Source: an uncultured delta proteobacterium (lineage in GTDB: Bacteria > Desulfobacterota > Binatia > UBA9968). From it: DNA of 64,000 nt. Of this stretch, positions 21,887-35,745 are shown one piece after another. The translations under genes were made by a program, and so were the position numbers. The notes under the pieces were generated by a model, which saw only the letters and a program-made list of their open reading frames with translations, had not been told where the DNA came from and did not search any database. The stretch covers positions 1 to 64,000 of the forward strand of contig CAVTUQ010000039.1 in the NCBI GenBank assembly GCA_963737905.1, written 5' to 3'. How positions within the stretch are numbered: the first letter of the stretch is position 1; each line of letters starts with the position of its first letter.

Positions 21887-22830
21887 CTATGCGCCTTCGT
21901 GGGCATCCTCTGCGGATAATAAATCGGAAGGGCGTTTTTCAACAAACATCGGTGACAAAAGTTTACCCTCGAATGCACGATGCAGGATTGACTGGCGGAA
22001 ACGCTCGGCTCGCTGGAGGTTAGCTGATATTTGAGCTTCCAGTTCGTGCACGACACTCAACCGCCGTTCCACTTCCGACACGATCCGCTCCTGTTCGGCG
22101 AGAGGCGGAAGCGGGACCTTAATGGCCTTGATAATCGCCGTGTTAAGATTAGGCTGTGCAGCGCCTTGCTTTACGCCACGAAGCCGCGTGGTCTGGGAGT
22201 GCAGGAAATAGAGTAAATACAGCTTTAGCGGATAATCGACATCGAGAAGCGCAGCCACACCGTCATTTATGCAACTGCCAATGAGCGTGATTTTTGGTAC
22301 ACCGAGAGTGGCACCGCTGTTGGTGAGCAGAAGTGTCTCTGGCTCAATGTACCGACTCCGCTCACGTCCAGCCTCTGTGACTGTTTCAGGAACTGATTTT
22401 AGATACGAATTGTGGTCGGCTGTAATTGGTCCGACAGTTATCCAGGGAATGTTGCCGCCGAAGTACTTTGGGTCGCCCGCTGGCCTTGGAGAGGCACCGC
22501 GAACCACATTGGAGAGTTGCTCGATAACTACCCAATTCCATCCTTCAGGTAGTCGCGGCAGACCCGCTGGTCCGGCTGCTTGCGGCTCTTTGTATTTGCT
22601 TTTTCCATTCCATTTAGCCCGACGTTCAGCGAGGATGCGGTTGAGGAGTTCGCTGGCTGACTCCACATCCGGATGCGCTTTGCGCCACTCTTCGGTGAGT
22701 TTGCCTTCGACGGCGGCTTTGAGGACGGCGGCTTTGTAGCGCTTGAGGTTGACCTTGACGCGCTTCAGGTTGGTGACGGCTTCGTCGAGGCGGGAGAATT
22801 GTTTTTCGATTTCCACGACGATGCGTCGGA
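21887..22830 (-). pseudogene. hsdS: Type I RM specificity subunit, C-terminal half (spacer + one TRD)
   Basis: RRIVVEIEKQFSRLDE, LKAAVEGKLT, LPEGWNW, GAAQPNLN, PLPPLAEQERIV and QSILHRAFEGKL motifs. Confidence 0.85.
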
Positions 22831-22965
22831 GGACGTAGGTGAAGTTCCGGATCGCAACGCCCCGATACGCCAAAATGTTCGCGTCGATCTCATCCGCACT
22901 GCCCAGCCTGCTTGGGTGAGCAGGCGGTCGATGTTTTCTCTGGCTTTGTCTTCGGGGCTCGGCAT
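22830..22965 (-). pseudogene. hsdR: Type I RM restriction subunit, N-terminal stub
   Basis: MPSPEDKARENIDRLLTQAGWAV...ANILAYRGVAIRNF, joined directly to the hsdS half. Confidence 0.75.
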
Positions 22966-23185
22966 TACGGTATTATTGAAAACGCGGACTGGGCCGCAAT
23001 AGCCAGTGCAGGATCTAAAGGTGGCTGAATTTGCCAGGCAGTCTATCGATTTGGCGGGAATCTGACAAGGAAGAAATTTCTAAGGGATAAAGGCGGAAGG
23101 ATAAGGGATAAGACGGATCGAAGCTAACAACCGATGGTTGAGAGCTTGCGGAAATTTTCCCGTGGTTTGCCCTTAGCTAGGAATT

Positions 23186-23260
23186 CTCGCGCTAAGCCGC
23201 CAAGGACGCCAAGTTCGGAAGTTTTTCTTTGTAACCTTTGAGCTCTTTGTGGTTAATTCT
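23186..23260. repeat. Dispersed REP-like element, copy A
   Basis: CTCGCGCTAAGCCGCCAAGGACGCCAAGTTCGGA is 29/34 identical to 51219..51252. Confidence 0.65.
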
Positions 23261-23304
23261 CTTCCGCTGGTTGCGGTTCTGTAGTGAATCAACCGGCAGA
23301 TGAA

Positions 23305-23463
23305 TCAGGGTTTTTCAGCTACGACTTTGCCGTCTTTCCATATGTAGATCGGCGTTCCATGCATGCGCGCGGTCTTGCGGGCCACCTTGGCGGCGCGGCG
23401 AAGCGCCCTCCCCACAGCGGCCGAGAACTCTTTACTAGTTCTGGGGCGGGTGGTTCGTTTCAT
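23305..23463 (-). CDS. 52-aa basic protein coupled to the zeta-toxin-like gene (absent from ORF track)
   Basis: MKRTTRPRTSKEFSAAVGRALRRAAKVARKTARMHGTPIYIWKDGKVVAEKP*; ATGA overlap. Confidence 0.75.
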   Translation of the reverse strand: MKRTTRPRTSKEFSAAVGRALRRAAKVARKTARMHGTPIYIWKDGKVVAEKP

Positions 23464-23990
23464 GGCGATCTTTCCAACAATCTGGGTATGCGACCGGAAT
23501 TATCATACACGCTCCAGGCATCGGCTAAAAGACGGTAGTGCTTCTCAAAGTTCATCCAACTGCGCGTGAAGCGGCGCAGCACATCGCGGCGCGGCACGTT
23601 ATGGCCCCCTTGCTTAACTCTGGCGGCGATGCGCCGGAGCGCCAGTTGGGGCGACGAGATACGCAAATACGCAATTTCGATCCGGCGACCTGCGGCTTTC
23701 CACTGCTGTAGGAGCCTAATATAAGTAAGCCCGCTCAAAGTACTCTCAAAAGCAAAGTCCTCCTCGGATTTGGCAAGCCGGTTCAGCTCATGGAGAAACA
23801 GACGACCCGCCGCCAAAGCCGCCAATTCAGGTCGCAACGGCGAGAGTCCGCTGGCGATCAAATCCGGGTTGACAAAATAAACGACGCCCATCTCTCTGGA
23901 CAGAAACTCGCGCGCAAAGGTGGTTTTGCCGGCGCCGTTGGGTCCCGCGATGATGATACAAAGCGGGGATGAACGACTTACTTTAGCCAT
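23460..23990 (-). CDS. Zeta-toxin-like P-loop kinase/ATPase
   Basis: IIAGPNGAGKTT, FVNPDLIA, FAFESTLSG, RVKQGGHNVP and VYDNS motifs. Confidence 0.85.
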   Translation of the reverse strand: MAKVSRSSPLCIIIAGPNGAGKTTFAREFLSREMGVVYFVNPDLIASGLSPLRPELAALAAGRLFLHELNRLAKSEEDFAFESTLSGLTYIRLLQQWKAAGRRIEIAYLRISSPQLALRRIAARVKQGGHNVPRRDVLRRFTRSWMNFEKHYRLLADAWSVYDNSGRIPRLLERSP

Positions 23991-24259: not shown

Positions 24260-25048
24260 ATGGATAGCCAACTTTCAATGCGTACGACAATTCGCTTGAA
24301 CAACGGCAGAGATATGCCCATCCTCGGCCTTGGTGTTTGGTCAATGGCCGAGGGAGCAGAGACAGAGCAAGCCGTTTTGTGGGCGCTCGAAGCGGGCTAC
24401 CGGTTGATCGACACCGCCAAGATCTACGGTAACGAAGCCAGCGTGGGCCGCGCCGTAAGGAAAAGCGGCATCGCCAGGGAAGAGATCTTCGTCACTACCA
24501 AATTGTGGCCCAGCGACTTTCTTAGAGTGAGGTCCGCGTTCCAAACAAGCTTGGACAAGCTAGGACTCACTTACATCGACCTTTACTTGATCCATTGGCC
24601 TGTACCTTTGATAAGAAACCGTATCTGGAGAGAGTTTGAAAAAATCTATGCGGCCGGCCTGGTGCGATCGATCGGCGTCAGCAACTACAGCATCAACCAA
24701 CTGGAGACCTTGGCGGGAGCAGCTGACATCCCCCCAGCCGTCAACCAAGTCCTGTTCCATCCCTTTTCTTACAAGAAGGAGTTACTCGACTACTGCAAAT
24801 CAAGGAATATTGCTCTTGAAGCCTATAGCCCGCTGGCCAGAGGCAGGAAGTTGAACGATCCGGCCATCGCCGATATCGCCGGAAAGTATGGGAAGACGCC
24901 GGCTCAAATCATGATTCGGTGGTCGCTCCAGCACGGCCTTATCCCGATACCGAAATCCAGCAACAAAAAAAGAATTTTCGATAACGCGGAGGTTTTCGAT
25001 TTTCAGATCGAAAACGCTGATATGAAGGTCCTGGACAATCTCAGCTAA
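24260..25048 (+). CDS. Aldo/keto reductase
   Basis: GYRLIDTAKIYGNE, FVTTKLW, DLYLIHWP, IGVSNY and IPKS motifs. Confidence 0.95.
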   Translation: MDSQLSMRTTIRLNNGRDMPILGLGVWSMAEGAETEQAVLWALEAGYRLIDTAKIYGNEASVGRAVRKSGIAREEIFVTTKLWPSDFLRVRSAFQTSLDKLGLTYIDLYLIHWPVPLIRNRIWREFEKIYAAGLVRSIGVSNYSINQLETLAGAADIPPAVNQVLFHPFSYKKELLDYCKSRNIALEAYSPLARGRKLNDPAIADIAGKYGKTPAQIMIRWSLQHGLIPIPKSSNKKRIFDNAEVFDFQIENADMKVLDNLS

Positions 25049-25316
25049 TCCGAACCGAAATACGTTCAAAGTTCAACGTCCTACCCACCGCCTCTTAAAA
25101 CGGTACAGGGATGTAACTGGCTGATGCGACGCTTCCACGTTTCGGGAATTCTCGAAACGTCAAGGAATTCAAGGTAGGATTTCAAAAAACAGCGGCATGA
25201 CCGCTGAAGGCCAATAGGTCGTTCTGCTCTGCTTTTATGACAAGCGATATAATCCTGGTCGTAGGTGAGAAAAAGAGACGTTAAGTTAAAGGGACCCGAG
25301 CGCAGAAAAAAGAAAC

Positions 25317-27986
25317 TTACAGTTGCAACCGATTGAGCCGCAGCGCGTTGGTGATCACGGAGACCGAGCTGAAAGTCATGGCGACGCTGGCGATGACCGG
25401 ACTTAAGCAGCATGCCGAAGAACGGATAGAGCACGCCCGCTGCGATGGGAATTCCCAGCACGTTATAGACAAACGCAAAGAACATGTTCTGCCGGATGTT
25501 GCGCATGGTTCCCCGGCTCAAGTGGCGCGCTTTGGCGATGCCGCGCAGGTCGCCTTTTACCAGGGTTATCCCGGCGCTTTCCATCGCCACGTCGGTGCCC
25601 GTGCCCATCGCGATTCCCACATGAGCCTGGGCCAGCGCCGGCGCGTCGTTCACTCCATCCCCTGCCATCGCCACCATCCGTCCCTCCGCCTGCAGCCGCT
25701 TGACCACCTCACCTTTTTGCTCGGGCAATACCTCGGCATGAACTTCATCGATGCCGAGCTTTTTCGCCACCGCTTCCGCCGTGGTGCGATTGTCTCCCGT
25801 CAGCATGACGATCTTTATCCCATCTTCGTGAAGCATATGGATCGCTTCGGGGGTGGATACCTTGACGGGATCGGCGACGCTTAGCAGCCCGGCGACGGCT
25901 CCTTCGACCACAACATACATCACCGTCTGCCCGTCTTTTCTGAGCTCTTCCGATCGATCCCACAGATCACTGACGCCAACGTTCAATTCTTCCAAGAGTT
26001 TCCGGTTGCCAAGGGCGACCCGCTTTCCACCGACAGAACCAACGACGCCCTTGCCCGTGATGGAGCGAAACTCTCGCACATCGACAAGCTTCACTCCCCT
26101 CTCTTCCGCGCCGCTTACGATGGCCGCTGCCAGTGGATGCTCGCTGCCGCGCTCGAGACTGGCTGCAAGGTACAGGAGTTCCCCTTCGTCTTGCCCGCGC
26201 ACCGGAATCACAGAGACCAGGCGAGGTTTGCCCTCGGTCAAGGTTCCCGTCTTATCGACGACCAGTGTGCCGATCTTCTCCATAACCTCCAACGCTTCGG
26301 CGTTCTTGATCAGCACACCGGCGGTCGCCCCTCGTCCCGTGCCGACCATGATCGACATCGGCGTCGCCAGGCCCAGCGCGCAGGGACAAGCAATGATCAA
26401 CACCGCAACAGCATTGACCAACGCATAAGCCATGGCAGGCTCCGGCCCGAACAGGGCCCAGACGATGAAGGTCAGAACGGCGACCAGAACCACCGCCGGA
26501 ACAAAATAGCCGGCGACAACGTCGGCCAATTTCTGGATCGGCGCCCGCGTGCGCTGCGCTTCGGCGACCATGCGCACGATCTGCGCAAGAAGCGTGTCGC
26601 TGCCGACTCGTTCTGCTTGCATGATGAAACTGCCGGTGCCGTTGATAGTACCGCCCGTGACCTTGCTGCCTTTTGTTTTTTCCACGGGAATCGGTTCGCC
26701 GGTGATCATGGATTCATCAACCGACGTGGCTCCCTCGATTACGATACCATCCACCGGCACTTTCTCACCCGGTCGGACGCGCAAGCGGTCTCCGGGTTTG
26801 ACCTGCTCTAACGGTACATCTTCTTCAGAACCGTCGTCCCGCACAAGACGAGCCGTTTTGGGCGCAAGCCCTAGCAAAGCCTTGATCGCCCGGCTGGTCT
26901 TGCTGCGGGCGCGCAGCTCCAACACCTGGCCGAGCAGAACCAACGTCGTGATAACCGCAGCGGCGTCGAAGTAAACGCCCACCTCACCCGTGTGTCCTCG
27001 GAAAGATTGGGGAAAGAGATGTGGGAAGAGAGTGGCAACGACACTGTAGACATAAGCCGTCCCGATGCCGATGGCGATCAAGGTGAACATATTCAAGCTA
27101 CGGTTAATGATCGAAGCCCAACCCCTTTGAAAGAATGGCCATCCGCACCAGAGAACCACCGGAGTCGCCAACCCAAGCTGGAGCCAATTGAGGAATTGAG
27201 GAGACACAATATGTTGCAGCGGCTGTCCGGGAATCATGTCGGACATCGCGAGAAAAGCGATCGGCGCGGTTAAGTACGAGGGAGATCCAGAACCGCCGCG
27301 TCATGTCGACCAATTCTGGGTTGACTTCTTCCTCCAGGGTTACGGTGCGAGGCTCCAGCGCCATCCCGCAGATGGGGCAGGAGCCGGGCTCCGAACGCAC
27401 AATCTCGGGATGCATGGGGCAGACGTACTCTGTCTTTACGAAGGAGCGGACGGGGATGCAGGTTCCAAAGCCATGCCGCATTTCGGGCAGGCCCCGGCTT
27501 TGACTCGCGCACCTCGGGATCCATCGGACAGACATACGCCGCCCTGTGATCCGCGTCGGTGGTCTGAGAAGTTTCCGGCGGCGGATTTGACGGCCGCGCC
27601 GGTGCATCGTGCACATGAGCATCAGGCCGGCGCGGGTTTTTGAGAACCGCCTCAGGATCTGCGATGAATTTCACCATGCATCGTCGGCTGCAAAAGTAAT
27701 AGGTCTCGCTCCCGTGCTTTTGTTTCCCGGCCGCGCGAGCGAGATCGACGGTCATGCCGCAGACCGGATCGTTCACCGATCCGCTGTGCCTACTGGAATG
27801 CTCTTTACCTTCAGCCTGGGTCTGATTAGCCTTCGCATACGCCGCCGGGTTTTCCTTAAATTTACCGAGGCAGTGTTGGCTGCAAAAATAGTAAGTTTCC
27901 CCGTTGTGCTTGTGTTTTCCTGCGGCGCTTTTCGGGTCCACTTCCATGCCGCAAATTGGATCAATCATCGTCGTTTCATCTTTCAC
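25317..27986 (-). CDS. copA: Cu(I)-translocating P1B ATPase with two YHS and YxCPM domains, copy 1 (frameshifts near 27490, 27270 and 25405)
   Basis: [50 protein letters not shown] and YN motifs. The true end reads [10 protein letters not shown] at 25317. Confidence 0.85.
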
Positions 27987-28113
27987 GCCTCTGGAAGTGT
28001 TGTCATGCTGGTTGATGTATTATATCACTGACACTCGCTGAAAAAGGCAGAGTCGTAACAGCATAGCGGTAACACTCGCTGCTGTGATTTCTTTTTCCTC
28101 TCGCTCCCCTTCT

Positions 28114-28434
28114 TCATCCACCAAGGTCCTTCTTCTTGGCCTCAAACTCGTCCTTGTTGATCTCGCCCCGTGCATATCGCTGGCGGAGAATCTCGATGGC
28201 TGAGTCCGACTTCTCTTCTTTTCCTTTACCCAGTAACCAACGAATACCTACGATGAGACCGACGATGACGAGCGCCCAGAAAAGAAACATCATCGCCATC
28301 ATCCCAATGCCCCATCCCCACCACCACATGGGATGCATTTCCCAGTGCCATTCATAAAATCGTCCTTGGGCCAGCAGTCCGTCTGGAGCTAGCCACCCTG
28401 CCAGCAGAAACGGCCAATGCCAGATTTGTTTCAT
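28114..28434 (-). CDS. SHOCT domain membrane protein
   Basis: Met/Trp/His-rich N-region, TM helix, AIEILRQRYARGEINKDEFE. Confidence 0.85.
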   Translation of the reverse strand: MKQIWHWPFLLAGWLAPDGLLAQGRFYEWHWEMHPMWWWGWGIGMMAMMFLFWALVIVGLIVGIRWLLGKGKEEKSDSAIEILRQRYARGEINKDEFEAKKKDLGG

Positions 28435-28894
28435 AGTGCCCTCCTCACTCTGGTAAGAATTCCATCGATAAGATCAACCCCTGTGATGCTTGCTTATCTC
28501 CCTCTTGCACGCAGGCCCGGCAAGAAGCCGGCCTTGTTTCACGTATTCCCGGTCCTCGGGCGCGCGGTGGAACAAATTGATCTCCACCCTGTAGAGATGA
28601 TGGGGTTGCTTTCACTGCCAGATCCTCAACTTGCGTGTGACCGCGAGAATTTGACGACTCTCTTGATCTTATAAAAAACGCCTGCCGCATTGAATGCAAG
28701 CCCAAAACAGTTGACTTTGATACTTGGCTAACAATGCGCAGGAACAGACGATGATCAATACCGGTTCGGTCTTTGCTCGATGGCAATGGGCTCGCCAGTC
28801 CCGTAGATCAAGCGCCTTTGACGACCGGCCTAAGCAGTCTATAATGGCACAGTAAACGTAGTGTCTGCACAATGTTTCTCGATAAGGGGATAAT

Positions 28895-29383
28895 ATGAAT
28901 CCAAAACAAATGACGCGCCCTAGAGCGCTGGGTAACACGATTTTCCTAGCAGCGTTTGTGACTGTGCTCATCCTTGCGCAGCCAGCCGTCGCCGGGCCGA
29001 CGGTCACAGTTTACAAAAGCCCGACCTGAGGTTGCTGCGTCGCGTGGGTGGGTCACCTGCGAGAAAGCGGTTACAATATAAAAACAAACGAGGTTTCGGA
29101 TGTTCAGCTCGATGCGATCAAAGATAAATACAGCGTTCCGCAGCCTCTTCGTACTTGCCATACCGCAATCGTCGAGAACTACGTCATTGAGGGCCACGTC
29201 CCCGCGGAACTTATCGAGCGAATTTTGAAAGAAAAACCAGCTTTCGCCGGACTTGGAGTTCCGGGAATGCCGATCGGCTCACCGGGAATGTACGGTCCCA
29301 AGCCAGAGCCTTATGACGTCTTCTCTTTTGACAAGAAAGGCCAGGTCAAACTTTACAAGCACATGCCCCCGTACAAGCAGTGA
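28895..29383 (+). CDS. Exported DUF411 family metal-binding protein, predicted selenoprotein (UGA at 29027-29029)
   Basis: AAGGGG RBS and ATG at 28895, signal peptide ending AVA, then VTVYKSPT-U-GCCVAWVGHL, RTCHTA, YVIEGHVP and GLGVPGMPIGSPGM. The family motif is normally YKSPxCGCC. Confidence 0.85.
29032..29070 (+). promoter_or_regulatory. Candidate bacterial SECIS element (DUF411)
   Basis: CGTGGGTG-GGT-CACCTGCG: 8-bp stem with two G-U pairs; GGU loop 22 nt after the UGA; lower stem TTGCT/AGCGG. Confidence 0.65.
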
Positions 29384-29427
29384 GTTTTATGATTTGACTG
29401 AGCGCAGTTTTTTCCTGGCAATACTTT

Positions 29428-30312
29428 TTATCGGGACCGGTACATCATCCCAGGGCCCATCATACCGCCGCCCATCATCCCCCCCATCCTTACGGCCATC
29501 CAACCTTGCTGTTCCTCTCCAAGAACCTGATTCGGGTCGAGGCGGTGATCACGGAGGACGAGCGACTCCAAGTAATATACCAGCGCCCAGAGTTCCCGAC
29601 TACTTAGCGAATCTGCATAAGACGGCATCGGAGTCCCGGAAAGCCCGCTAACAAGCGTGAGATAGGTTTCTCTAATATCAGATCCTCGCTTGAGTGGGCG
29701 CCAGGTCAAGTCCGACGGCCAGATCGGCCAGCCCCAATCGTCTTTGAGGTCTCCCGCGGATGGACCATCGCCGCGACCTTGCTCTCCATGACAAGCATTA
29801 CAGCCGCTTTCCTTATACAACCGTTTACCTTGATCCAGGATTTCCTGCGTTTTCGGTGGAGCCGCCGGAACACTGATTGGTTTTCCCGGCTTTTCTTTCA
29901 CAAACCGGGGTGAGAATGTCTTGATGTATTGAATCACTGCTCTCCGATCGTTGTCTCCTAGATCGGCACGGCCAATCATTCCAGTCCATCGAACTCCTTG
30001 AGTCACAGTACGAAGCAGATCATCATCCGTGGGCAATGAACCTGAAGGTGTAGAGCCGAACTTGAATACGCCAGTTCTAAAGTCTCGCGGCCGGATGCGA
30101 AACAGCGAAGCAGCCGGACCATTGCTGTCTCCGTCAACACCGTGGCAGACAGCACAGTTGACCTGATAGATTTGTTGTCCCAGGTACAAGGTTTGTTTAG
30201 ACGGCGACGTTTCGGTTTCGGCAGCGCCGGCTGATCTCAAGGTGAATTCAAATCCTGGCCAGAGCACAAGACCAATAAGAGCCCCCGCGGCGATTTTCAT
30301 GGTTTCTTCCAA
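29428..30312 (-). CDS. Di-haem cytochrome c with Met/Gly-rich tail
   Basis: CAVCH and CNACH motifs, signal peptide, tail MGGMMGGGMMGPGMM. Confidence 0.9.
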   Translation of the reverse strand: MEETMKIAAGALIGLVLWPGFEFTLRSAGAAETETSPSKQTLYLGQQIYQVNCAVCHGVDGDSNGPAASLFRIRPRDFRTGVFKFGSTPSGSLPTDDDLLRTVTQGVRWTGMIGRADLGDNDRRAVIQYIKTFSPRFVKEKPGKPISVPAAPPKTQEILDQGKRLYKESGCNACHGEQGRGDGPSAGDLKDDWGWPIWPSDLTWRPLKRGSDIRETYLTLVSGLSGTPMPSYADSLSSRELWALVYYLESLVLRDHRLDPNQVLGEEQQGWMAVRMGGMMGGGMMGPGMMYRSR

Positions 30313-30365
30313 TCAACAAATCAGACTGAACCCATTGCTAGACGGGCGCCTGAGCGCGTCGGGTT

Positions 30366-30662
30366 CTACGATTCTAAATCTTTTCTCTTTTCCTCGAATT
30401 CAGCTTTTTGAATTTCCCCTCTCGCGTAGCGGCGTTTAAGAACCTCCACGGCATCTTCCGACGGCTTCGATCTCGCATGCGGTGACAAATAACGGACGAG
30501 AAGAACAATTCCAGCGATCGCGAGGACCAAAAATATCAACATAAAAATAAACATAAATATCCCCCATCCGCCTCCCATCATGTTGTTATGCCAACCCCAG
30601 GGCCCTGGATAACCTGGCTGCCATTGAACCAGCATTTCTCCAACCATCGATAAAGTTTTCAT
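30366..30662 (-). CDS. SHOCT domain membrane protein
   Basis: TM helix and AVEVLKRRYARGEIQKAEFEE. Confidence 0.85.
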   Translation of the reverse strand: MKTLSMVGEMLVQWQPGYPGPWGWHNNMMGGGWGIFMFIFMLIFLVLAIAGIVLLVRYLSPHARSKPSEDAVEVLKRRYARGEIQKAEFEEKRKDLES

Positions 30663-30776
30663 TTTTGTCTCCTCCTTATCCTTACGGCCACCGATTTAAA
30701 ACCCAGGAGGAAATCTCCCTTGTTGAATAAGGTCTACAAGCAGAGAAAGATTTTCTCCATTTTCACGGTAATAGCT

Positions 30777-30870
30777 ATTTCTTATTCGTCGGCGGCTTTT
30801 TCTCTAAGCTGTACCCTGGCAAATAACGCCTAGTATATTCTTCGACGAAAGCCTTTGTTCTTGCCTCACA
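30777..30870 (-). pseudogene. Remnant paralog of the C-terminus of 31903..32211
   Basis: EARTKAFVEEYTRRYLPGYSLEKK versus KARAKAFVEEYLQRYLPEYKLEKK. Confidence 0.6.
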
Positions 30871-30980
30871 CTCCTGGGAGTAATTCTTTCTCGCTTGTCG
30901 CCGTCACTGTCTTTTGATTCTGGCTTTCACACTGTTTCGTGTTAGTCCAAAATTCTTGTTCCCGTTCCTCAACAGATTGG

Positions 30981-31070
30981 TCATTTTTTGGCTTCGGGCT
31001 GAGGCTCGGCTTTGGCTTCAGCTTTGGGCTTAGGTTCGGCTTTTGCCTCAGTCTTAGGCTCGGCCTTCAG
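30981..31070 (-). repeat. Degenerate 24-bp coding-type tandem repeat (KAEPK/Q-x-EA), orphan gene tail
   Basis: Reads LKAEPKTEAKAEPKPKAEAKAEPQPEAKK* on the minus strand, with no start. Confidence 0.55.
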
Positions 31071-31183
31071 TCTCAGCAGTCGCGGGCGCAGGGATTTCAC
31101 TTTGGTTTTTTGCGCAACGGACGCGCGGTGGCGTTTCGTCGCGGCGCCTGCCCAGCCTAACCGTCAATATTCTCAATCCGATA

Positions 31184-31753
31184 TCAACCGCGTCTCAATT
31201 TATCGCGCTGCTCCTTGGTGAGCACCGCATCGATCTGCTTCTGGGCGCTGAGCGATAGGTCAAACATCTGTTGGCGCAGCTCCGACATCTTGCGGTAGCT
31301 CTTGCTGAGCGCTGCGTCATCGCGTTGGTCCGAGTAGTACTGCTCGTTCATCAGCGCTTGCTCATCCTGCATCTTGCCCATAATTTCCCAGTGCTTGCGC
31401 CGCACGTCGTTCTGGATCTTGGCAATCTTGCTGCGTTGCTCTGCGCTGAGATTGAGATCAGATCTCGTACCGTAACCGAACATCGTGCCAGAACCCATGC
31501 CGTAGTCGGGGCCGAAACTGCCCATCATACCTGGTCCCATCCCGTAACCACCGCCCCAACCCGGACCCATCATCCCTGGTCCCATTCCATAGCCGTATCC
31601 CGGTCCATAACCGTACCCTCCTCCAGGACCCATCCCATAGCCCGGACCGGGCTGAGTCCCCTTATCGCCGGGAGCCGGAGATTGAGCAAAAGCAGAGGTT
31701 GTCAAAACCAGCAAAAACAATATCGCGAATATCGCCGAGACTTTCTTTTTCAT
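31184..31753 (-). CDS. Spy/CpxP/ZraP family periplasmic protein with GYGMGPG repeats
   Basis: Signal peptide, repeated GYGMGPGMMG, LNLSAEQ and VLTKEQ (LTxxQ) motifs. Confidence 0.85.
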   Translation of the reverse strand: MKKKVSAIFAILFLLVLTTSAFAQSPAPGDKGTQPGPGYGMGPGGGYGYGPGYGYGMGPGMMGPGWGGGYGMGPGMMGSFGPDYGMGSGTMFGYGTRSDLNLSAEQRSKIAKIQNDVRRKHWEIMGKMQDEQALMNEQYYSDQRDDAALSKSYRKMSELRQQMFDLSLSAQKQIDAVLTKEQRDKLRRG

Positions 31754-31902
31754 TGTGCTTCCTCCCTCTTACGAACTCTTTTAGATTGTCTTATTGTATG
31801 TCGATCAGTGATAACATTTATTCCACCTCACGGAGACGCCCGCCCGTTGAATCATCCCGTGCCAGCATTAAGCAGCGGTTCTATTTATTAACAGAGAACG
31901 GT

Positions 31903-32211
31903 TTACGGATTCTTCTTGTCGTCTTTCTTTTCCAGCTTGTATTCCGGAAGATAACGCTGGAGATATTCTTCAACAAAAGCCTTGGCCCGTGCCTTCTGCT
32001 CTTCAGGTGTGAGATTCGGAGAGGGTTGGCTTTGCTGGGAGCCCTGGCCGTAGCCTGGCCCGTAACCTTGACCACCACCCATCATTCCTTGTCCTCCTCC
32101 GCCGTAACCTTGCCCCATCATACCTCCACCCATTTGGGCGAAAGCGTAAGATGTTAATGTGATAAGAAATAATGCCAGTGGAATGACAAGTGGCTTCTTT
32201 TTGATGTTCAT
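31903..32211 (-). CDS. Secreted Gly/Met-rich hypothetical protein
   Basis: Signal peptide ending AFA, then MGGGMMGQGYGG repeats. Confidence 0.75.
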   Translation of the reverse strand: MNIKKKPLVIPLALFLITLTSYAFAQMGGGMMGQGYGGGGQGMMGGGQGYGPGYGQGSQQSQPSPNLTPEEQKARAKAFVEEYLQRYLPEYKLEKKDDKKNP

Positions 32212-32249
32212 TGCTGCTCCGCATTAAGTTGATTTGGAAAATATAAACC

Positions 32250-32266
32250 AGCAAAGCTAGTGCCAT
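32250..32266 (-). promoter_or_regulatory. Putative sigma-54 promoter
   Basis: ATGGCACTAGCTTTGCT: GG-N10-GC about 40 nt upstream of 32211. Confidence 0.65.
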
Positions 32267-32525
32267 CATTCCTGCGCTCCGTGTTTCTTTGCTTGCGCGC
32301 ACTGTTTAGTCCGTAAGAAGTCGAGTTCATTAAATAAGGCCGCCACTTTTTCGAAGGCCAAAGGATATTTCCACATCACTCAGACCAATACGCCACAGTT
32401 AGCACGCATTTTTGTCGCACTTTCGCCGGAGACGAAGCAATATGCTTTCCTCATATTTCGCTTCAATGACAAAATACCAGTGTTCGATTCTCATTCTTGC
32501 AAATGACTCTATCCTCTAAACAGCT

Positions 32526-35051
32526 CTATAGCTTCATCTTGTTAAGCCGCAGCGCATTGGTAATCACCGACACTGAACTGAACGTCATCGCGGCGCTCGC
32601 AATGATCGGACTTAACAAGAGGCCAAAGAAGGGATAGAGCGCTCCGGCCGCAATGGGAATTCCCAAGATATTGTAGATGAAAGCAAAGAACAGGTTCTGG
32701 CGTATGTTCCGCATCGTTCCGTGGCTGAGCCGGCGCGCGTTGGCGATGCCTCTAAGATCACCTTTGACAAGTGTTATCCCCGCGCTTTCCATTGCTACGT
32801 CAGTCCCCGTTCCCATCGCTATGCCCACATGCGCCTGAGCCAGAGCCGGAGCATCATTGATTCCGTCACCTGCCATCGCGACCATTTTCCCTTCCGCTTG
32901 CAGACGCTTGACGACCTCGCCTTTCTGCTCGGGCAAAACCTCCGCTTGAATCTCATCGATCCCGAGCTTGCCCGCCACGGCTTCGGCCGTCGTGCGATTG
33001 TCCCCGGTGAGCATCACGATTTTGACTCCTTCCTTGTGCAACAGCTGGATCGCTTCGGGAGTCGAGTTCTTGATCGGGTCGGCCACACCGACCAGACCCA
33101 CAAGCTCGCGCTCGACAACGACGGACATGACTGTCTGTCCGTCACGGCGCAGTTCCTCGGCGCGATTCGACAACGCCGTAGGTCGCACACCCATTTCTTC
33201 GAGGAGCTTTTGATTTCCGAGCCCCACTGCTTTTCCGTCTACGGTACCCATCACACCTTTTCCCGTGACAGAGCGAAAGTCCGTTGCCTCAGTAAGCTTG
33301 ATGCCCCGCTCACGAGTCCCGTCAACGATGGCCGCGGCGAGCGGATGTTCGCTCCCTCGCTCGAGGCTCCCCGCCAACCGCAGAATTTCGTCTTCGTTTT
33401 TACCGCTCGCGGGAATCACCGACACGAGGCGGGGCTTGCCCTCGGTGAGCGTTCCAGTCTTATCGACCACAAGCGTGTCAATTTTTTCCATCACCTCCAG
33501 AGCTTCCGCATTCTTGATCAGCACTCCGGCTCCCGCCCCGCGCCCCGTGCCCACCATAATTGACACCGGGGTAGCCAATCCCAACGCACAGGGGCAGGCG
33601 ATGATTAATACCGCCACTGCATTGACGAGAGCATGGGCCAAGCGCGGCGCCGGCCCCACCAGCCCCCAGATCACAAAGGTGATGATCGCCACCAAAACAA
33701 CTGCTGGGACGAAATAAGAGGCAACGATGTCTGCCAACTTCTGTATCGGCGCGCGGCTTCGTTGGGCTTCGCTTACCATACGAACGATTTGAGCAAGGAG
33801 CGTATCGCTTCCTACACGCTCGGCCCGCATGGTAAAGCTTCCAGTCCCATTGACGGTTCCGCCTGTAATGCGACTCTCTTTCACTTTTTCTACCGGAATG
33901 GGCTCGCCAGTGATCATCGACTCGTCAACCGACGTGGTGCCGTCCAGCACCACGCCGTCAACCGGGATTTTTTCTCCGGGACGGACCCGAAGGCGATCAC
34001 CCGGCGTTACGCGCTCCAACGGAATATCCTCTTCGCTCCCATCGTCGCGTAGCAGCCGCGCTGTTTTAGGCGCAAGTCCGAGCAGCGCTTTGATAGCGCT
34101 ACTGGTTCGGCTGCGGGCTCGCAGCTCAAGCACCTGACCCAGGAGAACCAAGGTTGTGATGACCGCGGCAGCGTCAAAATAAACTGCGACCTGTCCTTCA
34201 GGCCCGCGGAACGATTCTGGAAATAGGTTCGGAAATATCGCCGCAATGAGACTGTAAACGTAGGCCGTTCCGACACCGATGGCGATGAGGGTGAACATGT
34301 TGAGACTACGATTAACGATCGATGCCCAACCGCGCTGGAAGAACGGCCAACCACCCCAGAGGACAACGGGAGTGGCAAGCGCTAATTGAAACCAGTTGAG
34401 AAAATGCGGTGAAAACCAGCGGTGAACCGGCTGGCCCGGAATAAATTCGGCAAGAGCGAAAAATAGCAGAGGGGCACTAATAACCGCGCTAATCCAAAAC
34501 CTCCTTGTCATGTCCACAAGCTCGGGATTCGCTTCCTCTTCCAGTGTGACAGTTCTCGGCTCGAGCGCCATGCCGCAGATCGGACAGGATCCCGGCTCCG
34601 GCCGCACAATCTCTGGATGCATCGGGCAAACATATTCGGTTCTGCTCGGAGAAAATGAGGTCGGGCTCTCCGGCTCCAGAGTCATGCCGCATTTGGGGCA
34701 AGGTCCAGGCTTGTTTTCGCGAACCTCCGGATCCATAGGACAGACATAGGCGACAGACTGTGCGTCGCGTTCGCCGTGCGTACCGCTGCTCCCGCTTCTC
34801 CCGGTTTTTTCCTTCCCCCTCGACGGGGGAAGGTCAGGATGGGGGTGCCACGATTCCGGATGCACACGTGTACCCTGCTCATTAGCGCTGGACTTCAGAA
34901 ACTTCTCAGGATCTTCTTTGAACTTTGCCAAGCAATGCTTGCTGCAAAAATAATAGACCCGCCCGTCATGCTCGTGCTTTCCCGCGGCGCTATTCGGTTG
35001 AACCTCCATTCCACAAACAGGATCAATCATTGTTGAATCTCCCTGGGGCAT
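32526..35051 (-). CDS. copA: Cu(I)-translocating P1B ATPase with YHS domain, copy 2 (intact)
   Basis: [40 protein letters not shown] and MxxSS motifs. Confidence 0.93.
34810..34847. repeat. Palindromic REP-like element inside the copA2 linker
   Basis: CCTTCCCCC-TCGAC-GGGGGAAGG perfect 9-bp stem followed by TCAGGATGGGGG; encodes [13 protein letters not shown]; absent from copA1. Confidence 0.6.
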
Positions 35052-35082
35052 AAACGACACTCCCAAACGATTTGTACCGCAT

Positions 35083-35745
35083 TTACTGCTCACTTTCTCG
35101 AAACGCACCCGCCGACATCAACTTTTTCCACTCGCCTTGTCTGGAAAAAAACATCGGCACGCTTTGCCGATAGGCTTCATAGGCGGCGCCGAATTTCTGC
35201 ACCATCTTTTCCTCTTCTTTTTTCGAAAGGCGATAATAAACCCACACGATAACGGGAAATAAAACCACTGTCGGAATGGTCGGCCAGTGAATCAACTGGC
35301 CAAAGACCGCAAGAAAAATACCCGTGTACTGAGGATGCCGGACAACGCCGTAAAGCTTGTCCGTCGCTAGCCGCCCTTCCTTGGTTGCAAGATAAATTTC
35401 CTTCCAACCCTCCGCGAGTAGAGAGATGCCGGCAAAAACGAAGGTGTATCCCACGATCATTTCAACCATGGCGCCCAGAGGTCCCCAGCCAAAGAGATAG
35501 GCCCAGAGGTGGCCGGTGTCGTGTGCCCAGGGAAGCTTTATTCCCAACCAGCCGGTCAACAGATAGATCGTCAGTGGAAAGCCGTACATCTCTGCGTATA
35601 GAGCGATGATGAAGGCCTGGACGAGACGAGCCCTTGTCCATTCTCTCCACCCTTTAGGCGCCACATAGCGGTAAAGGATCCATGAAGCTATCACCATCAT
35701 GATGATCGAAAGCTCCCAAAAACCGATGTCTGATCCCTGGTCCAT
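35083..35745 (-). CDS. Isoprenylcysteine carboxyl methyltransferase (ICMT/PEMT) family membrane protein
   Basis: [26 protein letters not shown] and EE..M..KFG..YEAY..VP motifs. Confidence 0.9.

Follow-up and report, generated by a model that had tools for sequence, protein, structure and literature searches.

A conserved in-frame TGA very likely encodes selenocysteine in a putatively exported CopG-family (DUF411) protein of an uncultured Binatia bacterium

The window analysed here is a stretch of 64,000 nucleotides from contig CAVTUQ010000039.1 (assembly GCA_963737905.1) of an uncultured delta proteobacterium affiliated with the Binatia. Near its middle, a plus-strand gene for a DUF411 protein is interrupted by an in-frame TGA. 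Is this TGA a stop, or is it read as selenocysteine (Sec)? The sequence, read directly, has a frame of 162 codons that starts with an ATG at 28895, contains a single in-frame TGA at 29027–29029 and ends with a TGA at 29381–29383. The list of open reading frames (ORFs) made with translation table 11 splits it into two ORFs of the same frame, 28895..29029 (44 aa) and 29048..29383 (111 aa, GTG start), separated by the internal TGA. Readthrough yields a product of 162 residues with the sequence VTVYKSPT-U-GCCVAWVGHL around the recoded position. A preliminary description of this DNA had pointed to the ATG with a ribosome binding site, to the readthrough frame with VTVYKSPT-TGA-GCC and to an ORF track showing the 3′ part only (29048..29383); these readings were borne out, the ORF list being cut at the TGA. 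The codon at 29027 is very likely a selenocysteine codon in a putatively exported copper protein of the CopG family (DUF411), with Sec in place of the first cysteine of the CxCC motif.

The family assignment is clear. The readthrough protein matched the Pfam family DUF411 (PF04214) with 87.3 bits at a cut-off of 27; the Pfam model covers residues 85–132 only. A search of the PDB gave a sole relative, the DUF411 protein CopG of Pseudomonas aeruginosa (6wis/6wje), with an E value of 1e-24 over residues 37–156. In the alignment with 6wis, U45, encoded by the TGA, stands opposite the first cysteine of C-G-C-C. An AlphaFold model based on 26 aligned homologues had a mean predicted local distance difference test score of 94.5. 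The five top PDB matches of the model were all chains of the 'copper resistance protein CopG', with template modelling (TM) scores of 0.83–0.89 and root-mean-square deviations (rmsd) of 1.7–2.4 Å; 6wis had a TM score of 0.89 and an rmsd of 1.7 Å. Thioredoxins and glutaredoxins ranked far below. The model has a strand at residues 2–7 and a helix at residues 14–23, which places the motif, model residues 11–14, between strand 1 and helix 1. There, U45 and C48 also make a UxxC pattern at the CxxC position of the thioredoxin fold. In the 26-sequence alignment (A2), C47, C48, C-H-T, E-G-H and both methionines of GMPxGSPGM, M125 and M132, are invariant. A hydrophobic N-terminal segment precedes the conserved ITVY strand in all 27 homologues.

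CopG-like proteins are described as periplasmic and linked to copA and cusCBA, and they aid copper resistance under anaerobic conditions (PMC7558416). The tetranuclear copper cluster of CopG is bound via CxCC and two adjacent methionines, and the proposed roles are oxidation of Cu(I) to Cu(II) and copper delivery to cuproproteins (PMC7558416). By analogy, M125 and M132 presumably correspond to the two cluster-ligating methionines.

The position of the TGA is conserved. The readthrough protein was searched in 60 related genomes and in the window's own, with stops read through and counted. Matches were present in 25 of these 61 genomes, at 28 places. Exactly one internal TGA was found at 27 of the places and none at the remaining one (L050, 39% identity). 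All 27 TGAs share one column, P-T/G-U-G/S-C-C, and L050 has a cysteine there. With the window gene excluded, 26 of 27 homologous places carry the TGA at the U45 column. These relatives are 48–68% identical to the window protein, with a frame that stays conserved before as well as after the TGA. The mean column identity of alignment A2 is 69%, with conserved residues before and after the Sec column (column 11). By family, the gene was detected in 22/36 genomes of the window's family, 2/5 of the sister family and 0/19 of a third family in the order. Omission of the genomes G006 and G012, both non-matching, changes these counts to 25/59 overall and 22/34 in the window's family. A sample of 400 genomes from elsewhere in the phylum yielded only one further match; it was weak (E 4.6e-4) and had no internal stop. 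The gene's occurrence in this phylum centres on the window's own family and its sister family.

The wider distribution was obtained by an alignment-based scan of genome contigs, which gave 596 relatives. The best 80 were kept. Of these, 78 could be assigned by a motif filter, and two, L062 and L130, dropped out as unclassifiable. Among these 78, the U45 column is TGA in 21 and TGC or TGT in 57. Two of the 21 TGA loci duplicate loci already in the set; the later tests use 44 distinct Sec forms and 58 Cys forms. Sec forms carry the labels Binatota, Acidobacteriota, Gemmatimonadota, Chloroflexota, Rokuibacteriota, Pseudomonadota (Burkholderiales) and Myxococcota, besides an unplaced 'delta proteobacterium'. 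The closest named record, with 70% identity, is a metagenome-assembled genome labelled Candidatus Binatia bacterium. The preliminary description had asked for relatives with either TGA or cysteine at this column and had proposed that Sec replaces the first cysteine; both forms exist as homologue pairs, and the alignment with 6wis puts Sec at that cysteine.

Confirmation of the TGA in read data had also been called for, and other assemblies were compared. The codon at 29027–29029 lies within contigs of three DNA runs that come from three studies. The listed differences, among them those at 29008 and 29067, include none at this codon. One of the runs may be the source sample; the other two represent strains with 4–5% divergence. 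The assurance is good and incomplete, because 52 less-supported differences were left unlisted. The single metatranscriptome run among those listed (X20, share 0.05) contributed no contigs to the stretch and speaks neither for nor against expression.

The genome encodes Sec machinery. The assembly comprises 46 contigs and is 87.5% complete. The selA (607 bits), selB (410 bits) and selD (381 bits) genes all scored above curated cut-offs and are adjacent on the minus strand of another contig (C29:71024-75669; loci L009, L011 and L019). The selD gene itself carries an in-frame TGA at its G-U-A-A-K site, and selenophosphate synthetase is listed with a UxxK motif (PMC13188914). With such an interruption of selD at the canonical site, the organism must be capable of Sec decoding to make its own SelD. 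Among the relatives, 15/20 have a tRNA-Sec of 64–79 bits, one of them from the same genus (13/18 without G006 and G012). ARAGORN called all ten of the relatives' examples fetched a tRNA-SeC.

Downstream of the TGA, the mRNA can fold into a hairpin resembling a bacterial Sec insertion sequence (SECIS) element. In the minimum free energy (MFE) fold of 64 nt from the UGA, the GGU loop begins at the 22nd nucleotide after the UGA. The MFE is −20.6 kcal/mol, with a z-score of −2.21; 6 of 200 shuffles were as stable. The 8-bp stem, the GGU loop, the spacing of 22 nt and a lower stem had been predicted before, and all are present in the window. The lower stem was lost in the consensus fold of 25 sequences, in which only six pairs were kept, and strain variants at 29067, 29068 and 29074 lie in its 3′ arm. 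In the genome's own selD, which served as a control, the UGA is followed after about 33 nt by a 7-bp hairpin whose loop is GUU. The SECIS model of bSECISearch reportedly works with 16–37 nt.

Conservation of the hairpin alone proves little, because the stem-loop overlaps the protein-conserved W-V-G-H-L codons. Sec and Cys forms were therefore compared. A hairpin was counted if it had a stem of at least 5 bp, a loop start 18–27 nt from the U of the UGA and a G in the first two loop bases. Such a G-loop hairpin at the SECIS position was present in 39/44 Sec forms versus 18/58 Cys forms (Fisher p 3e-9). For a fixed 9-pair structure, 73.2% of the cells pair in Sec forms, a value reached by none of 500 column shuffles. 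In Cys forms 57.9% pair, and 233/500 column shuffles reach this value. Pair 30/46 is kept in 37/44 Sec forms versus 18/57 Cys forms, and pair 33/43 in 40/44 versus 28/57. Codon choice differs accordingly: Sec forms shun methionine and valine codons after the histidine, and the wobble base before the tryptophan is matched to the first base after the leucine. In the Sec forms L041, L099, L100, L120 and L096 (12 bp), a hairpin at the same place is formed from different sequence. The 36-nt stretch starting 9 nt after the U of the UGA had a z-score of −0.59 in Sec forms versus +0.16 in Cys forms (Mann-Whitney p 7e-6). Restricted to the 19 Sec forms from other phyla, the within-gene comparison of stability after the UGA gave p 0.035. 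The conservation of the hairpin that the preliminary description had made a point of is thus an enrichment in Sec forms, with pairing above column shuffles in Sec forms only.

Several observations weigh against the Sec assignment or weaken its support. At z −2.2, the hairpin of the window gene itself stands out only modestly. The hairpin results in part from codons conserved for the protein; the W-V-x-H-L codons produce a similar one in 18/58 Cys forms. The covariation comes mostly from the single pair 30/46, and kinship of the sequences inflates the shuffle control. The mean fold energy of the whole region was −15.7 kcal/mol in Sec forms and −17.7 kcal/mol in Cys forms (one-sided p 0.998). 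Whole-region MFE failed as a SECIS test because the Cys forms, whose genomes are richer in GC, are no less stable when folded; within-gene z-scores and the position-specific hairpin count replaced it. Ranked by stability within the gene, the hairpin comes among the top three windows in only 1/44 Sec forms. Five Sec forms, all labelled Chloroflexota, are without a hairpin that fits the definition (L061, L075, L103, L105 and L124). A tRNA-Sec was not found in the assembly by five approaches. The Rfam tRNA-Sec model, applied to the whole genome with 150/852 candidates scored, had its best hit of 46.6 bits on a tRNA-Leu. ARAGORN reported 45 tRNAs in the assembly, none for Sec, and Rfam detected no tRNA-Sec in the 40 kb around selABD. 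BLAST and nhmmer searches of the assembly with the tRNA-Sec of ten relatives gave nothing significant. Of the four sel genes expected for a selenoprotein at the outset, selA, selB and a Sec-type selD were thus found and selC was not seen in the 87.5% complete assembly. Its absence from the assembly shows no absence from the organism because the assembly is incomplete, and the missing tRNA-Sec is taken to be an assembly gap. The copper context is not shared by relatives: at five related loci, the ten ORFs that flank the gene included no copper efflux genes, and their products were a DsbA-like protein, DUF2231, an ABC ATPase and solute-binding proteins.

The five Chloroflexota-labelled forms without the hairpin have common nucleotides after the UGA, with TGT for the third cysteine followed by a glycine codon. 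In these forms, W-I/V/A-x-H/Y-V/M/L replaces W-V-G-H-L. They may use a different SECIS.

Three other explanations for the TGA can be weighed against this evidence. Readthrough by near-cognate insertion of tryptophan or cysteine, or by a reassigned code, is unlikely. The unseen selC would fit, as would two relatives with about 86% identity, P0130 and P0128, which pipelines for public metagenomes called with TGA as tryptophan (products of 164 and 184 aa). These calls have a W at the Sec column and overrun the terminal TGA into unrelated residues. They are an annotation artefact, yet an independent sight of the same two TGAs. TGA is no general sense codon here, as it also terminates this very gene. 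In all other homologues, cysteine occupies the recoded column, a hallmark of Sec/Cys pairs, and selA, selB and a Sec-type selD are present in the genome, with tRNA-Sec in relatives.

It is very unlikely that the TGA is a true stop and that the product is a cytoplasmic DUF411 fragment of 111 aa, translated from the GTG at 29048 and devoid of signal peptide and CxCC. This GTG exists, and the Pfam match at residues 85–132 lies in the downstream part. The 44 upstream codons with signal peptide, strand 1 and motif are conserved in 27/27 copies, however, and the fragment would lose two parts of the CopG fold, strand 1 and the metal motif. The GTG itself sits within the hairpin. The promoter-like site at 28818–28845 and the Shine-Dalgarno-like motif lie ahead of the ATG at 28895 and not ahead of the GTG; promoter-like sites numbered two versus 0.8 expected in shuffles.

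A nonsense mutation leaving a pseudogene and a useless 44-aa peptide is scarcely credible: the split frame in the ORF list, the fragments of 106–111 aa in public databases and the missing selC agree with it, but the same column is TGA in 26/27 places of relatives and in 21 of the 78 homologues classified in the wider scan, and independent nonsense mutations at one codon are contradicted because the frame stays intact, with 48–68% identity, on both sides.

The Sec reading of the TGA leads to the following scheme, in which we infer Sec insertion, export, copper binding and the role of selenium. The recoding mechanism would be the ordinary bacterial one. Transcription would start from the promoter-like site and translation from the ATG at 28895. 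At the UGA at 29027, a complex of SelB, GTP and Sec-tRNA(Sec), held by the G-loop hairpin 14 nt downstream, would insert Sec. The terminal TGA at 29381, without such a hairpin, would terminate. The 162-aa precursor would be exported and cleaved after A33 into a mature protein of about 129 aa with a thioredoxin-like fold, which may handle periplasmic copper like CopG of P. aeruginosa. It could bind a multinuclear copper cluster via U45, C47, C48 and the two methionines of GMPxGSPGM, or it could interconvert Cu(I) and Cu(II). A selenolate would provide a softer, more nucleophilic ligand or a redox centre with a lower pKa. Judged by homology and local context, a copper function of the window protein is reasonably probable.

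The evolution of the Sec form was studied in a quick maximum-likelihood tree of 102 distinct sequences and 115 columns, with the Sec/Cys column masked. The tree is poorly resolved, with five starred branches. The window gene belongs to a clade in which 30 of the 31 rows are Sec forms and which is supported by a value of 95 in the Shimodaira–Hasegawa-like approximate likelihood ratio test. Other Sec forms are scattered. The fewest Cys/Sec state changes are 10, versus a mean of 33 with shuffled labels, and the well-supported branches force only two. On this tree, the number of Cys/Sec switches would be at least two. The window copy clusters with those that other genera in its family carry (L024–L026; 62–68% identity; support 97), and it is only 51–54% identical to two copies from its own genus (L035 and L036). 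This grouping with other genera instead of the own genus is a hint of a transfer together with the metal island.

Some Cys forms with W-V-x-H-L, for example L057, L082, L111 and L116, already form a hairpin of 6–7 bp where the SECIS would lie. This may make the family pre-adapted to a conversion from Cys to Sec. A bolder proposal combines ligation and evolution: Sec45 would ligate a multinuclear copper cluster directly, possibly as a bridge, and Cys/Sec switching would have recurred over at least seven phyla, perhaps eased by W-V-x-H-L codons that form half a SECIS hairpin. This combination is tentative, and we consider it somewhat improbable.

The gene lies in a stretch of metal genes on the opposite strand (Table 1). 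A SHOCT protein is also among the minus-strand neighbours between 25 and 35 kb. The CopG-family gene had been described as the only plus-strand gene of the island. This holds for the metal-gene stretch 25081–35108 and fails if an aldo/keto reductase at 24260–25048 on the plus strand is counted. The catalogued selenoprotein families include both YHS-domain proteins and E1-E2 ATPases (PMC13188914). The YHS protein at 27270–27986 and the ATPase at 32526–35108 have no meaningful in-frame TGA; readthrough leaves these ORFs unchanged or extends them with junk. Further TGA-interrupted metal genes in the island were rejected on this basis, as readthrough adds 79 codons of meaningless sequence to the ATPase ORF at 32526. 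Just upstream of the metal genes, at 21887–23990, are ORFs for a type I restriction-modification specificity subunit and a zeta-toxin/AAA-like protein. They may mark a mobile or variable region.

Table 1. Features of the Sec-containing CopG-family gene and its neighbours. Positions refer to the window.
Feature	Position	Strand	Remarks
P-type (E1-E2) ATPase, 721 aa	25081..27246	−	neighbour
Two-YHS-domain protein, weak NosL-like match	27270..27986	−	neighbour
Sigma-70-like promoter (putative)	28818..28845	+	TTGACG, 16-nt spacer, TATAAT; 11/12 matches; about 50 nt upstream of ATG; consensus match only
Shine-Dalgarno-like AAGGGG	28884..28889	+	5 nt before ATG; read from sequence
Full coding sequence, Sec-containing DUF411/CopG homologue	28895..29383	+	PF04214, PDB match, structure model
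Predicted Sec-type signal peptide, residues 1–33	28895..28993	+	basic N-region, hydrophobic core, A-V-A before G34; by eye
In-frame TGA, read as selenocysteine U45	29027..29029	+	aligned with first Cys of CopG CxCC
U-G-C-C motif, residues 45–48	29027..29038	+	counterpart of CopG CxCC copper-cluster motif; columns 11, 13 and 14 invariant
Extended hairpin with lower stem	29031..29074	+	MFE fold of window sequence only; not conserved
SECIS-like upper stem-loop	29043..29061	+	8-bp stem (29043–29050 with 29054–29061), GGU apical loop 29051–29053; overlaps codons A-W-V-G-H-L-R
C-H-T motif, residues 88–90	29156..29164	+	invariant (columns C54 H55 T56 of alignment A2)
G-M-P-x-G-S-P-G-M motif, residues 124–132	29264..29290	+	carries both invariant Met
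Dihaem cytochrome c	29428..30312	−	neighbour, convergent with CopG gene
LTXXQ/heavy-metal-resistance (CpxP/Spy-like) protein	31184..31753	−	neighbour
Heavy-metal P-type ATPase, N-terminal YHS domain and HMBD domains	32526..35108	−	neighbour

The annotation of this family in databases follows from the TGA. The closest database proteins, with 63–86% identity, are fragments of 106–111 aa that start after the TGA; they go by 'hypothetical protein' or, where the record is from NCBI, by 'DUF411 domain-containing protein'. The full-length entries of about 150 aa are Cys forms with 46–61% identity. NCBIfam, which includes NCBI's curated selenoprotein models, had no family matching the readthrough protein. 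Three metagenome proteins of 278–279 aa (P0002–P0004) have 50–52% identity and a PF04214 match, two of them also with a glutaredoxin Pfam match. They are possibly tandem or fused DUF411 forms.

The preliminary description had left a prior report of the family to be checked. Zhang et al. 2026 (PMC13188914) list 119 families and subfamilies of prokaryotic selenoproteins in a catalogue presented as the most comprehensive inventory. Its Table 1 has no DUF411, PF04214, CopG or UxCC entry. DUF411, PF04214 and CopG do not occur in the main texts of the BSepDB and deep-Sep papers (PMC13326102, PMC12013277), whose supplementary tables could list them. They are likewise absent from the 'DUF' and 'copper' mentions of a 2022 review (PMC9312934). 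In the full-text literature, no paper tying DUF411, CopG or COG3019 to selenium was found, with supplements and subscription papers outside the scope. The family is apparently a genuine selenoprotein family, undescribed in the literature searched.

If the assignment is true, a widespread family is added to the prokaryotic selenoproteome, present in soil lineages such as Binatia-like bacteria, Acidobacteriota, Gemmatimonadota, Chloroflexota, Rokubacteria and others. It is missing from both the 2026 catalogue of 119 families and NCBI's curated selenoprotein models. Databases systematically mis-annotate the Sec-form genes as truncated proteins without signal peptide and active-site motif. Selenium use would be tied to periplasmic copper handling, and a natural Sec/Cys pair would exist in a structurally solved copper-cluster protein. 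Such a pair is a clean system for probing the effect of selenium at a copper site. The gene is also a case for study of how a SECIS hairpin originates from already conserved codons. If Sec45 ligates the copper cluster, the family would be the first natural copper-selenolate metalloprotein family.

Among known systems, CopG of P. aeruginosa (6WIS/6WJE; PMC7558416) is one of the closest. It shares with the window protein the Pfam family, the predicted fold, the motif position after strand 1, the C-H-T, E-G-H and methionine-bearing GMPxGSPGM segments and, by prediction, the N-terminal export signal. The linkage to genes for copper or heavy-metal ATPases is also found in the window. In contrast to CopG, the first position of CxCC is encoded by UGA, very probably read as Sec, followed by a hairpin, and the residues after the motif are W-V-G-H-L instead of W-I-K-H-L. 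For the window protein, copper binding is a prediction.

Thioredoxin-fold selenoproteins with a UxxC motif include thioredoxin, glutaredoxin, DsbA-like and thiol:disulfide interchange proteins (Table 1 of PMC13188914). They likewise have Sec first in U-x-x-C at the N-terminus of helix 1, Cys homologues at the Sec position and a SECIS-like hairpin in the coding sequence just 3′ of the UGA. The motif in the window protein is U-x-C-C, with an extra cysteine, and its Cys form is a metal-cluster site, not a plain dithiol/disulfide centre. The window gene very probably represents one more Sec/Cys family of thioredoxin-like fold, with Sec placed at a copper-cluster site that is known from structure.

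Predicted metal-handling selenoproteins are the third comparison. Table 1 of PMC13188914 has a cation-transporting E1-E2 ATPase (UxxC), the Cu/Zn efflux transporter SO_0444 (UxC), CopZ-like 2Fe-2S proteins and a YHS-domain protein (GxU). Their folds and families differ from that of the window protein, and none of those in the table is a periplasmic cluster protein of the CopG type. They share with it the use of Sec for a metal-ligand cysteine in copper or heavy-metal homeostasis and, as here, are predictions from comparative genomics.

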